Assembly (NCBI GenBank): GCA_040768745.1
Contig: JAXGMI010000001.1
Coordinates: forward strand, 896,001-960,000
Direction of reading: 5' to 3'
Source of the DNA: Desulfomicrobium sp.
GTDB taxonomy: Bacteria; Desulfobacterota; Desulfovibrionia; Desulfovibrionales; Desulfomicrobiaceae
Length of the DNA stretch: 64,000 nucleotides
Each line of letters begins with the position of its first letter. Position 1 is the stretch's first letter. Below are positions 2,112 to 6,759 of the stretch, in pieces. Under the pieces are notes generated by a model. That model did no database searches. It was not told the DNA's origin and worked only from the letters and a program-made list of their open reading frames with translations. The position numbers were made by a program, and so were the translations under genes.

Positions 2112-3156
2112 AAAGGGGTCACATCTTCCTGTGACGAAGCTCGATCCCTTTTTTCATCTTCTCCACCCCCTGGGCCACCGCCCCGCCCTGCCCGACCTTG
2201 GCCTTGGCCCGCGCGATGGCGCTGCCCACGGTGCTGTACTTGTCCGTCTTGAAATGCTCGCCGATGGCGCGCAGGGATGCGCCGGTGAGCGTCCTGGCCA
2301 GGTACATGGCCATGTCCCGGGCCTCGTTTACGACCCCCCGCACGGACGTGTCCAGCTCTTCCGCCTCCACTCCGTAGAATTCGCAGACAGCGGCCGTGAC
2401 CGCCTCCAGGGACACGGGCGCGAGCAGGCGGGACTCGGGCACTTCGGGGCTGAGCTTGGAAGCGAAGAAGCGGTCCTTGATGGACTGCACGAATTCCGGA
2501 TTTCCGAGGATCGACGGCAATTTCTTCAGGGAAAACAAGCGTTCGATTGTCTCGTCGACATCCTCGGCCATGAAACGGAGGTATGCTTCCCTGGCCCTGG
2601 CCGGGTCGTCCGCGAACCGCCCCAGCAGAGGTTCCGCGTGCAGCCATTTCCACTCTTTGCCCCGGCGCAGGTAGCCGTGGTGGCTGCTCCACGGATAGTC
2701 CGCCAGGTTCGTGGCCAGGCCGGCCTGCAGCGGGTTGCGGTGGATGTAGCGGAGCAGGCCCGCCAGATACTCCTCCTCGCCGACCAGGATGGCCTTGTAC
2801 CTGCCCCGGAAGAGCTGTCCGTCCACGCCGTGCCGGCGGTTGAACCACTGCGTGTACACCCCGCCCAGATGGCGCATGGCCCGGGCCAGGTTGGCCTCCG
2901 AGGTCTGGAGCAGCAGGTGGTAGTGGCTGGGCATGAGACAGTAGGCCGCCACCCCGACTCTGAACATGGCGGACGTGCCCTGGAGCAGGTCCACGAAGGC
3001 CTTGCAGTCCTCGCTGTCGTGGAAGATCCTTTCCTGCCGGCGGCCGCGGTTGGTGATGAGGTACCAGGCGCCGTCAAATTCGATGCGCAGTGGCCGGGCC
3101 ATGGAAAATTGATTACGTCTCAGGGTTATTTCGTCAAAGGAAGATTTGACCCGTTT
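2112..3156 (-). mobile_element. RAYT/Y1-transposase element bounded by 27-bp inverted hairpin repeats
   Basis: The reverse complement of 2112-2138 (TTCGTCACAGGAAGATGTGACCCCTTT) matches 3130-3156 (TTCGTCAAAGGAAGATTTGACCCGTTT) at 24/27 positions; the pair encloses only the transposase gene. Confidence 0.8.
2119..3102 (-). CDS. REP-associated tyrosine transposase (Y1 HUH, IS200/RAYT family) with a C-terminal DnaA domain IV-like HTH
   Basis: MARPLRIE N-terminus, TNRG, HUH motif MPSHYHLL, GQLFRGRYK, catalytic YIHRNP, YPWSS; C-terminus ARDMAMYLAR...SLRAIGEHF...YSTV. Confidence 0.9.
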   Translation of the reverse strand: MARPLRIEFDGAWYLITNRGRRQERIFHDSEDCKAFVDLLQGTSAMFRVGVAAYCLMPSHYHLLLQTSEANLARAMRHLGGVYTQWFNRRHGVDGQLFRGRYKAILVGEEEYLAGLLRYIHRNPLQAGLATNLADYPWSSHHGYLRRGKEWKWLHAEPLLGRFADDPARAREAYLRFMAEDVDETIERLFSLKKLPSILGNPEFVQSIKDRFFASKLSPEVPESRLLAPVSLEAVTAAVCEFYGVEAEELDTSVRGVVNEARDMAMYLARTLTGASLRAIGEHFKTDKYSTVGSAIARAKAKVGQGGAVAQGVEKMKKGIELRHRKM

Positions 3157-3239: not shown

Positions 3240-3635
3240 CTATGATCCAACAATAGTACAATTTGCAATTGCACCATCCGTCATATTCACATCAAATGTA
3301 TAGTTACTGTACGATTCTTGACCATATACAAATGTCCCATCACTGAATCTCACTGTCCCATTATTTAAAACTTCAAACTTCTTATTCGTATTAGTAAGCT
3401 TTGTTCCTGGAATTTGACAAGTCTCGTTTGTTGTTCCATTTGCAGCAAATTTCGCAGCTGCTTCGTTCATACAGTTTCTCAAATCTGATTCACATGCCGA
3501 TTCAGCAGCATTCTTCTTATACTTCACAAACTGCGGGATGGCGATGGCGGCCAGGATGCCGATGATGGCCACGACGATCAACAATTCAACCAGGGTGAAG
3601 CCTTTTTCGCCTTTTCTCATTCTGAACCGATTCAT
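3240..3635 (-). CDS. pilA: Type IVa major pilin (12-aa leader + 119-aa mature protein)
   Basis: ATG at 3635 with a GGAGG RBS; class III signal G|FTLVELLIVVAIIGILAAIAIP. The 259-aa ORF in the track is over-extended upstream. Confidence 0.9.
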   Translation of the reverse strand: MNRFRMRKGEKGFTLVELLIVVAIIGILAAIAIPQFVKYKKNAAESACESDLRNCMNEAAAKFAANGTTNETCQIPGTKLTNTNKKFEVLNNGTVRFSDGTFVYGQESYSNYTFDVNMTDGAIANCTIVGS

Positions 3636-3686
3636 ACGTCCTCCAAAAAAATGGGTTGATGGTAGTGATGCTCGTGGCGTCCTTCT

Positions 3687-3702: not shown

Positions 3703-3884
3703 GAATTGAATTTTCTTTGATTTCGGCTCGTTGAGGGAAAAATGCCGGAATGCGACGATCCGGAACGACAAATTTTGTCAGCGCCGGTCCAATTTTGGAG
3801 GGAAGACCGGCGAATTCTGGCGGGAAATGCGGGGTGGTGCGGAGTGGTAGGGGCAGGTCCCGGACAAACAATCAGGCAAACCAT

Positions 3885-3911
3885 GGATTGCTTCGCTGCG
3901 CTCGCAATGAC
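3885..3911 (-). repeat. Solitary REP-like palindromic element (GTCATTGCGAGCGCAGCGAAGCAATCC)
   Basis: ATTGC/GCAAT stem enclosing GA-GCGCAGC-GAA. Confidence 0.6.
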
Positions 3912-3963
3912 CGAGGCCTGAGCCTGAGCGCTCCGGGACGCCCTGCATATATGTCCTTCGGCT

Positions 3964-4089
3964 GTCCGGCACACAGCCCAGGACAAACGGTAATTCGTTG
4001 ATTCCGTGTGAGGATTCACGGTCCGGCACGCTCACAGCCCAGGGCAAACGGCAGCTCGTTGATTCCGTGTGAGGATTCATGGTCCGGCA
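3964..4089. repeat. Tandem direct repeat, 2 copies of ~57-61 bp
   Basis: GTCCGGCA...CACAGCCCAGG(A/G)CAAACGG...TCGTTGATTCCGTGTGAGGATTCA starts at 3964 and 4021, with a third GTCCGGCA at 4082. Confidence 0.85.
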
Positions 4090-4205
4090 GAAGTCCTCGA
4101 ACGAGGGCCCGGCATGGCCGAAATCCCGCCCAGCCTTGACTTGCCCCCGAGATGCCCTAAATCATAACATCTGTTCTTGAAAAATTGGGTACCCAGACCC
4201 GATCC

Positions 4206-5979
4206 CCCTTCGCCCTGAGCGGCGAAGCGGGTCCAAGGGCTCGAAAGTCGGAAAACGTGGTTCGACAGGCTCACCACGAACGGAGACAGGCTCACCACGA
4301 ACGGACAAGAAATTCACGTGCGGGCAAGAAATTCACGAACGGACTAGAAATGCCCCTCTCCGTTCGCCCTGAGCAGCGAAGCGGTCGAAGGGCTCGAAAG
4401 TCGGAAAACGTGGTTCGACACGCTCACCACGAACGGACAAGAAATTCACGAACGGACTAGAAATTCACGTGCGGACTAGAAATGCCCCTCTCCGTTCGCC
4501 CTGAGCAGCGAAGCGGTCGAAGGGCGGGAAAGTGAAATCCCTGGTTCGACAGGCTCACCACGAACGGGCAAGAAATTCACGTGCGGACTAGAAATGCCCC
4601 TCTCCGTTCGCCCTGAGCAGCGAAGCGGTCGAAGGGCGGGAAAAAATATTCGAGGAAATTTGATTGAGTTTTTACGTCTACATCTTGAAATGCTCCGACG
4701 GCAGCTACTACACCGGACACACGGATGATTTGGAAAAACGCATCAATCAGCATCATCACGGCGAATTTCCTGAATGCTACACATTGAAACGCCGGCCTCT
4801 TGAACTCGTTTTTTCTCAAGTGCATGCAACACGACAAGAGGCCCTTGACTCGGAAAGACAGATCAAAGGTTGGAGCAGAGCCAAAAAGGAAGCTTTGATC
4901 CGTGGAGATTGGGCGGAAATCAGGCGGCTTGCAAAAAATCGCTCTGATCTTTCAAATTGAGATGGATTGACACCAGAAAGTGTGGTTCGACAAGCTCACC
5001 ACGAACGGACAAAAAATTCACGAACGGACAAAAAATGCCCCGCTCCGTTCGCCCTGAGCAGCGAAGCGGGTCGAAGGGCGCGAAAGTGAAATCCCTGGTT
5101 CGACAGGCTCACCACGAACGGACAAGAAATTCACGTGCGACAAGAAATGCCCCCTCTCCGTTCGCCCTGAGCAGCGAAGCGGGTCGAAGGGCTCGAAAGT
5201 CGGAAAACGTGGTTCGACAAGCTCACCACGAACGGACAAGAAATTCACGAACGGACAAGAAATTCACGTGCGGACAAGAAATGCCCCCCGCTCCGTTCGC
5301 CCTGAGCAGCGAAGCGGGTCGAAGGGCGCGAAAGTGAAATCCCTGGTTCGACAGGCTCACCACGAACGGGCAAGAAATTCACGAATGGACAAGAAATGCC
5401 CCTCTCCGTTCGCCCTGAGCAGCGAAGCGGTCGAAGGGCGGGAAAGTGAAATCCCTGGTTCGACAGGCTCACCACGAACGGAGACACGCTCACCACGAAC
5501 GGAGACAGGTGCACCACGAACGGGCAAGAAATTCACGAATGGACAAGAAATGCCCCTCTCCGTTCGCCCTGAGCAGCGAAGCGGGTCGAAGGGCGCAAAA
5601 GTCGGAAAACGTGGTTCGACAGGCTCACCACGAACGGAGACAGGCTCACCACGAACGGAGACAGGCTCACCACGAACGGACAAGAAATTCACGAATGGAC
5701 AAGAAATGCCCCTCTCCGTTCGCCCTGAGCAGCGAAGCGGGTCGAAGGGCGCAAAGGGAAAAGCCCTGGTTCGACAGGCTCACCATGAACGGGCAAGAAA
5801 TGCCCCTCCCCGTTCGCCCTGAGCAGCGAAGCGGGTCGAAGGGCGGGAAAGTTAAAACCCCTGGTTCGACAGGCTCACCACGAACGGAGACAGGCTCACC
5901 ACGAACGGACAAGAAATTCACGAACGGACAAGAAATGCCCCTCTCCGTTCGCCCTGAGCGGCGAAGCGAGTCGAAGGGC
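4206..5979. repeat. REP/BIME-like array of alternating inverted hairpin arms (12 A arms, 11 B arms) interrupted by a GIY-YIG gene
   Basis: Arm A CCGTTCGCCCTGAGCAGCGAAGCGG(G)TCGAAGGGC at 4206, 4360, 4492, 4604, 5045, 5158, 5293, 5406, 5560, 5716, 5810, 5945. Arm B TGGTTCGACAGGCTCACCACGAACGG at 4258, 4411, 4542, 4983, 5096, 5210, 5344, 5456, 5612, 5767, 5862. Confidence 0.97.
4664..4960 (+). CDS. Stand-alone GIY-YIG nuclease (UPF0213/YhbQ-like, 98 aa)
   Basis: TTG start with a GAGGA RBS at 4652-4656; FYVYIL..C.DGSYYTGHT.DLEKR..QH, YT..RRP, EAL..ERQIKGWSR.KK; catalytic-type Tyr, Arg, His and Glu residues are present. Confidence 0.92.
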   Translation: MSFYVYILKCSDGSYYTGHTDDLEKRINQHHHGEFPECYTLKRRPLELVFSQVHATRQEALDSERQIKGWSRAKKEALIRGDWAEIRRLAKNRSDLSN

Positions 5980-6054: not shown

Positions 6055-6759
6055 ATGAACTTCCGGACCGCCACCCAGACCCGCACCGACGTGCGGGCCA
6101 CCAACTCGTACCTGCGCGGGGTGTACAACTGGATGAGCCTGGGCCTGGCCCTGACCGCCATGGTGGCCTACGCCGTGGCCACGACCCCCGCAGTAGCCCA
6201 GGTCATCTTCACCAACCCCATACTGTTCTGGGGCCTGATCCTGGCCCAGTTCGGCCTGGTCCTGGGGCTGTCCGGCGCCGTGCACCGCATGTCCGCCGCT
6301 GCGGCCACGGGCCTGTTTTTGCTCTACAGCGCCCTGAACGGCGCCACCCTGTCCTCCATCCTCATGGTCTACACGGCGGCCTCGGTCTTCAAGGCCTTCA
6401 TCGTGTGCACGGGCATGTTCGCGGCCATGAGCATTTACGGGACCGTGACCAAAAGGGACCTGACCTCCATGGGCAGTTTCCTGTTCATGGGCCTCATCGG
6501 CATCATCATCGCCTCCATCGTGAACATCTTCATGGCCAGTCCGGTTCTGGACTTCGCCATCAGCGGCATCGGGGTGCTCATCTTCACCGGCCTGACCGCC
6601 TACGACACCCAGAAGCTGAAGATGATGGGCGAATCCGCACCCATGGACGACGCCCTGGCCATCCGCCGCGGCACCATCCTCGGCGCCCTGACCCTGTACC
6701 TGGACTTCATCAACCTGTTCCTGTTCCTGCTCAGGTTCTTCGGATCTTCCCGCGAGTGA
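6055..6759 (+). CDS. Bax inhibitor-1/YccA family membrane protein
   Basis: Seven TM segments, YLRGVYNWM, TAYDTQKLK, GALTLYLDFINLFLFLLR; AAGGAGG RBS. Confidence 0.93.
   Translation: MNFRTATQTRTDVRATNSYLRGVYNWMSLGLALTAMVAYAVATTPAVAQVIFTNPILFWGLILAQFGLVLGLSGAVHRMSAAAATGLFLLYSALNGATLSSILMVYTAASVFKAFIVCTGMFAAMSIYGTVTKRDLTSMGSFLFMGLIGIIIASIVNIFMASPVLDFAISGIGVLIFTGLTAYDTQKLKMMGESAPMDDALAIRRGTILGALTLYLDFINLFLFLLRFFGSSRE

Follow-up and report, generated by a model that had tools for sequence, protein, structure and literature searches.

A single-domain GIY-YIG nuclease gene between its own hairpin repeats in Desulfomicrobium, and its relation to Ssn

Does a small GIY-YIG nuclease gene found inside an array of inverted repeats belong to these repeats, and has the pair travelled as a unit? 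The question is raised by a locus in a 64,000-nt stretch of DNA from Desulfomicrobium sp. (contig JAXGMI010000001.1, positions 896,001 to 960,000), here called the window. In RAYT loci, an enzyme gene stands between inverted REPs, and gene-less heterodimers (REPINs, BIMEs) are dispersed and amplified into mosaic arrays. The initial annotation compared the locus with this layout and proposed an undescribed system, in which a structure-specific nickase would maintain or propagate the repeats. The word ‘undescribed’ can no longer stand: the same architecture, the biochemistry and the RAYT/IS200 analogy are already published for Ssn, in the accessible text of Chenal et al. 2025 (PMC11893778). The design, a GIY-YIG gene between its own hairpin repeats, is already known; judged from sequence, the protein branch and the repeat differ from those of Ssn. 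The locus points to a second large GIY-YIG branch beyond Ssn with its own repeat family, a combination not found in the searched literature or in Rfam.

The array and its host site

The features of the locus are, in window coordinates:

2119..3102, minus strand: RAYT-like gene with Y1_Tnp and DnaA_C domains (72.7 bits against a cut-off of 80), without arms and outside the system
3240..3638, minus strand: type IV pilin gene, the left neighbour (domain search)
4135..4165, plus strand: promoter-like block TTGACT-18-AATCAT, conserved in 15 of 19 congener loci
4206..5978, no single strand: repeat array of 11 A-spacer-B units and a final lone A arm (arm parsing; empty in congeners)
4206..4567, no single strand: three gene-less A-B doublets upstream of the nuclease gene, at 4206-4283, 4360-4436 and 4492-4567 (arm parsing)
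4604..4636, plus strand: left arm (A type) of the gene-bearing unit, with head CCGTTC, predicted stem CCC/GGG, GAG..TCGA core and extended apical hairpin (arm parsing, stem-pairing and folding analyses)
4652..4656, plus strand: Shine-Dalgarno-like GAGGA, 7 nt ahead of the TTG (sequence)
4664..4960, plus strand: single-domain GIY-YIG nuclease gene, 98 aa, TTG start (Pfam GIY-YIG E 3e-19; alignment; structure model)
4983..5008, minus strand: right arm (B type) of the gene-bearing unit, head and core as in the left arm, predicted stem TGG/CCA and 4-nt middle (arm parsing, stem-pairing and folding analyses)
5045..5887, no single strand: seven gene-less A-B doublets downstream of the nuclease gene, their linkers with partial head duplications (arm parsing)
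5945..5978, plus strand: lone A arm closing the array (arm parsing)
6055..6759, plus strand: yccA/Bax1-I gene, the right neighbour, conserved in congeners (domain search, congener comparison)

Arm parsing and Pfam bear out the annotated array of A and inverted B arms, with one unit holding an intact 98-aa GIY-YIG gene and its ribosome-binding site. Over 4206-5978, 12 A arms (starting at 4206, where the arm is degenerate, and at 4360, 4492, 4604, 5045, 5158, 5293, 5406, 5560, 5716, 5810 and 5945) alternate with 11 inverted B arms, and A and B are one repeat in opposite orientations. The ten short units first reported are confirmed; their spacer, given as ~16-17 bp, measures 17-18 bp by the boundaries set here. 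The remaining pair (4604-4636 and 4983-5008) encloses 346 bp including the ORF 4664-4960. The termini CCGTTCG...CGAACGG, once ascribed to every unit, are exact in nine of 11, the first unit beginning CCCTTCG and the unit at 5716 closing TGAACGG. In the linkers from B to A, the B head is partly duplicated over 19-21 nt. The stretch 4615-5005 is also covered, with four differences and one gap, by a contig from another study (X3), which shows that the junctions between arms and gene are no artefact of assembly; the whole array is covered by no contig, and the unit number therefore rests on the present assembly. In two metatranscriptome assemblies from one study, the pilin gene and yccA are covered and 4704-4937 is not, although contigs of this kind cannot show absence.

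The array is inserted between the conserved promoter block and the yccA start codon, a distance of 115-160 bp in 11 of 14 measurable congener loci versus 1893 bp here. The block is likely the yccA promoter and likely also reads the nuclease gene. The search for an empty pilin-yccA site in relatives succeeded, 0 arms being found at all 19 congener loci. Across the genus, the gene occurs in one of 25 genomes, and arms number 33 here versus 0-2 elsewhere. Empty sites and rare gene together suggest that the cassette arrived recently in the yccA leader and was amplified in tandem later. It likely came by horizontal transfer, was amplified locally and seeded only a few other sites. Arms outside the array number only about a dozen in this genome and form small clusters at C1:492213-492541 and in the first 15 kb of C3 (230-400, 2390-2630, 5370-5560 and 15005). 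In these secondary clusters, iterated 5′ halves lie upstream and iterated 3′ halves downstream of one full arm, and the C1 cluster stands directly ahead of an ORF that by eye resembles a type I restriction methylase. No target-site duplication is visible at the array ends, and the pre-insertion sequence is not definable from orthologous empty sites this variable.

Several other observations concern the neighbourhood. In two congeners (L084 and L094), the promoter-yccA site is filled by a different insert, apparently a small two-gene module, which marks this site as an insertion hotspot. Between the pilin gene and the promoter block lie two 60-nt direct repeats, 90% identical and unrelated to the arms (3969-4089). 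A single GTCATTGCGAGC...AAGCAATCC hairpin occurs at 3876-3912 on the minus strand; this type flanks some Ssn-like genes (L129, L156) and has related matches in several relatives, and no Ssn-like gene was found in the Desulfomicrobium genome by tblastn. The RAYT-like gene at 2119-3102 has several relatives in its own genome and is unlinked to arms.

The nuclease and its repeat

The only domain of the 98-aa protein is PF01541, over residues 3-75, and the structure model is compact (pLDDT 96.7). Residues Y6, Y16, G18, R26, H30 and E64 are invariant in 39 of 39 clade members of the alignment; among them Y6, Y16 and E64 match the catalytic Tyr, Tyr and Glu of SsnA (Y6, Y17 and E64). The clade adds a conserved KGWSRxKK..LIxGDW end with an additional helix in the model. 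The sole PDB matches are the UPF0213 proteins 1ZG2 and 1YWL (E 9.5e-16 and 6.9e-12). The only other close GIY-YIG protein found by tblastn in the same genome is a plain UPF0213 protein at C2:627519, of 42% identity and without arms. A GIY-YIG homing endonuclease was considered and rejected: the protein has no second domain, so it lacks the C-terminal DNA-binding (NUMOD) module that defines such enzymes in the accessible text of PMC1564403. At 46.5% GC, the gene is less GC-rich than yccA (63.5%), the Y1 transposase gene (65%) and the window (60%), as annotated; the claim fails for the adjacent pilin gene (41%).

The arm consists of the head CCGTTC with one purine, followed by a triplet, TGAG, a variable middle and TCGAA, and last by the complement of the triplet; clade-wide the repeat becomes CCGYTCR-NNN-YGAG-n-TCGAR-N′N′N′. 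In 87 of 123 distinct arms, every one of the three stem positions is paired (mean of the shuffles 25.7, maximum 40), with several alternative pairs per position. It is this co-variation of the triplets that supports a hairpin, and not folding energy, single arms folding no better than their shuffles (z -1.19 and -0.05). The arm is predicted to fold into a stem of 4-5 bp and an apex, both variable, with the invariant internal loop GAG/CGA between them; this loop could presumably form tandem sheared G-A pairs. The unpaired CCGYTC head would be the specificity element. Partial duplications start 1-3 nt 5′ of the head CG in four independent early cases; at 30 further loci from 11 of 78 genomes, they begin anywhere between 0 and ~10 nt 5′ of this CG, many being imperfect and the range limited by the search pattern. 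Taken together, these cases establish no constant start that would serve as a fixed nick signature. In Rfam, the region has no match at E ≤ 5, and 20 related loci give nothing meaningful; a match to the known RNA motif Flavo-1 finds no support in these searches.

Pairing, movement and repeat load

Among 6237 candidates, 2974 proteins reach E ≤ 1e-25, a figure that covers the subclades together. The best 80 of 578 homologue loci in genomes (55-69% identity) come from Alpha-, Beta- and Gammaproteobacteria, Chloroflexota, Bacteroidota, Myxococcota, Babeliales and others; they were joined by 80 of 234 GIY-YIG matches from another search. Loci with <150 nt upstream or <250 nt downstream were left out (4 core, 12 sister, 1 Ssn-like and 1 plain UPF0213), as were 4 duplicate sister loci. 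Group labels follow sequence signatures corrected by the tree, and repeats played no part in them.

The motif fixed a priori in the initial annotation lies ≤300 bp from the gene in 38 of 76 loci with enough flank (14 with arms inward on both sides), and in 0 of every control set. With a widened pattern, tuned after the flanks were inspected, 106 of 108 core-clade loci (the window among them) have a paired arm core no farther than about 300 bp away, and in 76 the arms face inward on both sides. A paired core is likewise found at 62 of 64 loci in the sister clade, but at 3 of 44 in the Ssn-like set and at 0 of 23 in plain UPF0213. Dinucleotide-block shuffles of the clade flanks give an arm on either side in 16 of 3120 cases and on both sides in 0 of 3120, so the pairing exceeds chance. 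As had been anticipated, close homologues have these inverted arms on their flanks, in many bacterial phyla, and the stem triplets co-vary. The sister clade, drawn from metagenomes, shares the arm core and differs in the head: of the 108 core loci, 94 have CG-N7-YGAG heads and 1 has the shorter-spaced CG-N5 head, and of the 64 sister loci, 55 have CG-N5 and 1 has CG-N7-YGAG. The two clades form separate groups (94/83 and 100/98) in the main maximum-likelihood tree, built from 59 hand-picked rows and 99 columns under the simpler model LG+G4; an earlier tree was a quick one. Comparison of nuclease phylogeny with repeat sequence thus finds that the head type changes with the subclade which, as one contrast between two clades, suggests nuclease-repeat co-evolution and is no proof of it.

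Within the core clade, one sub-branch (L106, L110, L112, L121, L136 and L152) has a C-GAG..TCGA-G arm with GAA-type middles in place of T-GAG..TCGA-A, and is a candidate third specificity. In sphingomonads (L102-L106, L115, L141, L146 and L172), the nuclease frame often runs on across the right arm and into the following gene, so that ORFs of 270-320 aa result; a SPOUT methyltransferase fusion of the Slx1-like domain is noted in the accessible text of Dunin-Horkawicz 2006 (PMC1564403). Three GIY-YIG proteins (L186, L188 and L196) fall between the repeat clades and plain UPF0213, and by eye arm-like fragments lie upstream of L188 and L196 and none at L186. Other small GIY-YIG genes (L123, L125, L140 from G066, L198 and L201) lie, by eye, beside or between tRNA-like gene copies, some of them degenerate; L140 has two near-identical GIY-YIG genes in tandem with repeated tRNA-like ends, and L123 and L140 form their own branch in the tree. 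IMG/VR gives seven weak relatives, the best of which (L329) has no arms.

Paralogues within one genome bear on movement. The genome G073 holds five cassette copies, and the alignment of four paralogues is bounded by the heads of the left and right arms, with little identity beyond them; for two copies, BLAST extends one side by another ~30 nt. Eight congeners hold nine further arm-to-arm matches at other sites (query 620-627 to 1015-1017), five others being partial. At two of the G073 sites, no measurable relative (11 at one site, 13 at the other; 19 loci fetched each) has either arms or gene. Among the 80 loci, flanks fall into 42 upstream clusters (71 flanks) and 44 downstream clusters (74 flanks); the largest cluster is one site common to 17 sphingomonad loci, which indicates a long vertical stay. 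Such comparisons supply evidence that the gene travels arm to arm, and gene and repeats have likely changed genome site as one unit.

Repeat copy number follows the gene, as had been proposed, both in the genus (33 arms against 0-2) and in the order of Parerythrobacter lacustris. In 197 genomes of this order, median arm counts are 31 with the gene and 0 without it; ≥10 arms occur in 29 of 41 gene-positive versus 18 of 156 gene-negative genomes, and ≥50 arms in 15 of 41 versus 1 of 156. Four of 201 genomes were dropped, having been found through the gene, and the remaining ones are kin, so that p-values overstate the contrast. Twelve of the 41 gene-positive genomes have <10 arms of the 4-nt-middle type. 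In the phylum of the window, four arm-rich draft genomes carry 105, 73, 60 and 34 arms, mostly as doublets, and the core-clade gene was not found in these drafts of 60-760 contigs. The loose arm pattern is noisy in GC-rich genomes, and a stricter one was run on five genomes.

Known systems and competing explanations

Several known systems resemble the locus in part. RAYT-REP loci and REPINs likewise combine an enzyme gene between inverted repeats with dispersed gene-less doublets (accessible text of PMC11893778 and PMC3733652); here the enclosed enzyme is a GIY-YIG hydrolase and not an HUH tyrosine transposase, there is no GTAG foot, and the Y1_Tnp genes of arm-rich genomes are not flanked by arms. 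The CGTC-tagged REP families of Di Nocera 2013 (PMC3733652) also consist of short palindromes, oriented and with an unpaired head, that occur mostly as heterodimers; their description in the available text gives stems of 8-9 bp, loops of 4-5 nt and a CGTC tag, which would set them apart from the present arm with its predicted 4-5 bp stem and internal loop, some overlap being possible. Plain UPF0213 and prokaryotic Slx1-like proteins (accessible text of PMC1564403) share the same minimal domain and include the closest solved structures (1ZG2 and 1YWL), whereas the present clade is sporadic, multi-copy and extended at the C-terminus, and plain UPF0213 genes lack arms (0 of 23). Neither UPF0213 nor the arm sequence was found in the searched supplements of PMC11893778 or in the literature searched, which covers few subscription papers.

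The closest precedent is Ssn. According to the accessible text of Chenal et al. (PMC11893778), Ssn genes encode single-domain GIY-YIG proteins (cd10448) and are flanked by NTS/SRM hairpins. SsnA of Neisseria meningitidis binds the hairpin only as ssDNA and cuts 5′ of it, giving a 20-nt product of NTS75, four bases before CGTC; bases of the head are needed, as are Y6, Y17 and E64, and the enzyme reduces integration of NTS-bearing DNA. The same authors note the likeness to IS200 and RAYT-REP and propose such an origin for Ssn, the peer-review file places Ssn as a sister clade to sparsely characterised SLX1-like proteins, and the paper confines the activity to cd10448 and leaves open whether repeat-flanked GIY-YIG genes are mobile. 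The present system shares with Ssn (~95 aa) a stand-alone GIY-YIG gene between oriented hairpin repeats, dispersed copies, an unpaired conserved 5′ head and a repeat load that follows the gene. It differs from the Ssn-like set in a UPF0213-like nuclease devoid of the C-terminal NPxW segment, and from the SRM in a repeat with a predicted short, freely varying stem and an invariant internal loop.

The explanation favoured here, held at somewhat better than even as a whole, is that of a cassette in which a single-domain GIY-YIG gene lies between two inward-facing copies of its partner repeat. The enzyme would recognise the repeat as an ssDNA hairpin and cut a few bases 5′ of the arm, as Ssn nucleases do. 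By this analogy, recognition and cleavage of the head strand as ssDNA are probable, and the Ssn precedent would make the enzyme specific for sequence plus structure on ssDNA rather than the purely structure-specific nickase first envisaged. Cuts would fall when the DNA is transiently single-stranded and be repaired by host recombination or replication restart, which might occasionally duplicate or relocate arm-to-arm units; dispersed doublets, local tandem arrays like that at 4206-5978 and new gene-bearing copies are the expected products. That host-repaired cuts drive duplication and relocation is the more tentative, less supported part of the scheme. To our knowledge, the GIY-YIG domain hydrolyses DNA and cannot join it; the enzyme is thus no transposase in the RAYT sense, and mobility needs host enzymes. 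It is tempting to go further and propose a class of mobile elements with a GIY-YIG hydrolase as sole enzyme, with arm-gene-arm units autonomous, doublets non-autonomous, and movement by ssDNA cutting and host repair in place of a transposase. Such a class, perhaps derived from UPF0213 repair-type nucleases separately from Ssn and comprising at least two subclades with their own heads, is possible and rather unlikely.

The same recognition step could serve a different end. In a domesticated, restriction-like role, the enzyme would cut incoming or recombining DNA that exposes arms as ssDNA and so modulate gene transfer, the repeats spreading by slippage and recombination unaided. SsnA modulates gene transfer by such cutting in Neisseria (accessible text of PMC11893778), the array adjoins a type IV pilin gene much as NTS clusters lie near surface genes, one site is stable in 17 loci, and the partial duplications resemble hairpin slippage. 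Such a role accords poorly with a very patchy gene (1 of 25 genomes of the genus and, above 140 bits, 3 of 251 of the phylum), with several arm-bounded paralogous cassettes per genome and with only about a dozen arms outside the array in the own genome; it is distinctly unlikely as the main account, and, sharing the recognition step with the cassette explanation, the two are not mutually exclusive. A more radical departure takes the arms as REPs of another mobiliser, RAYT/HUH or host recombination, with the GIY-YIG gene as long-term cargo that does not recognise them. Arm-rich genomes without the gene exist, all five tested have Y1_Tnp genes, and a RAYT-like gene lies 1.1 kb from the array. 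Repeat abundance would then track the RAYT; arms were found at only 1 of 26 Y1_Tnp loci of arm-rich genomes and at 0 of 6 in the own genome, which led to rejection of the RAYT as main driver. The head type moreover switches with the nuclease subclade, the active-site residues are invariant, and related Ssn enzymes bind their flanking repeats (accessible text of PMC11893778), so the cargo reading is improbable.

The nuclease could also belong to the published Ssn family (cd10448) itself, as a divergent protein whose SRM has drifted. It matches Ssn in size, architecture and catalytic residues, the heads CCGTC and CCGTTC are similar, pairwise blastp against two NTS-flanked Ssn-like proteins gives E 3e-12 and 3e-11, and AU tests on the 99 columns do not reject a joining of the two groups (p 0.42, 0.26 and 0.50). 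Against this, the protein scores 56.9 bits on an Ssn-like profile, versus 148-150 for the NTS-flanked L340 and L346, and 92 bits on the plain UPF0213 profile; the Ssn-like profile is a proxy built from 45 Ssn-like proteins and checked on NTS-flanked genes. Its PDB matches are UPF0213 proteins only, the tree separates the Ssn-like set from it by a long branch (100/98), and the SRM consensus is absent from all 108 core and all 68 sister loci, whereas 15 of 44 Ssn-like loci, the positive control, have it. Membership of the published family thus has little probability, and a single origin shared with Ssn is possible.

The cassette explanation would give a candidate partner enzyme to a repeat present at tens to hundreds of copies in many phyla, and the spread of transposase-less REP families becomes a directly testable question. 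If the activity is Ssn-like, the two subclades would represent new ssDNA-cutting specificities in which stem and apex vary freely. Among the Ssn-like genes themselves, 29 of 44 have no SRM match and many are flanked by other hairpins (L148, L147, L203, L206, L129 and L156). The published SRM pattern misses these hairpins, and the diversity of Ssn repeats is therefore under-counted.
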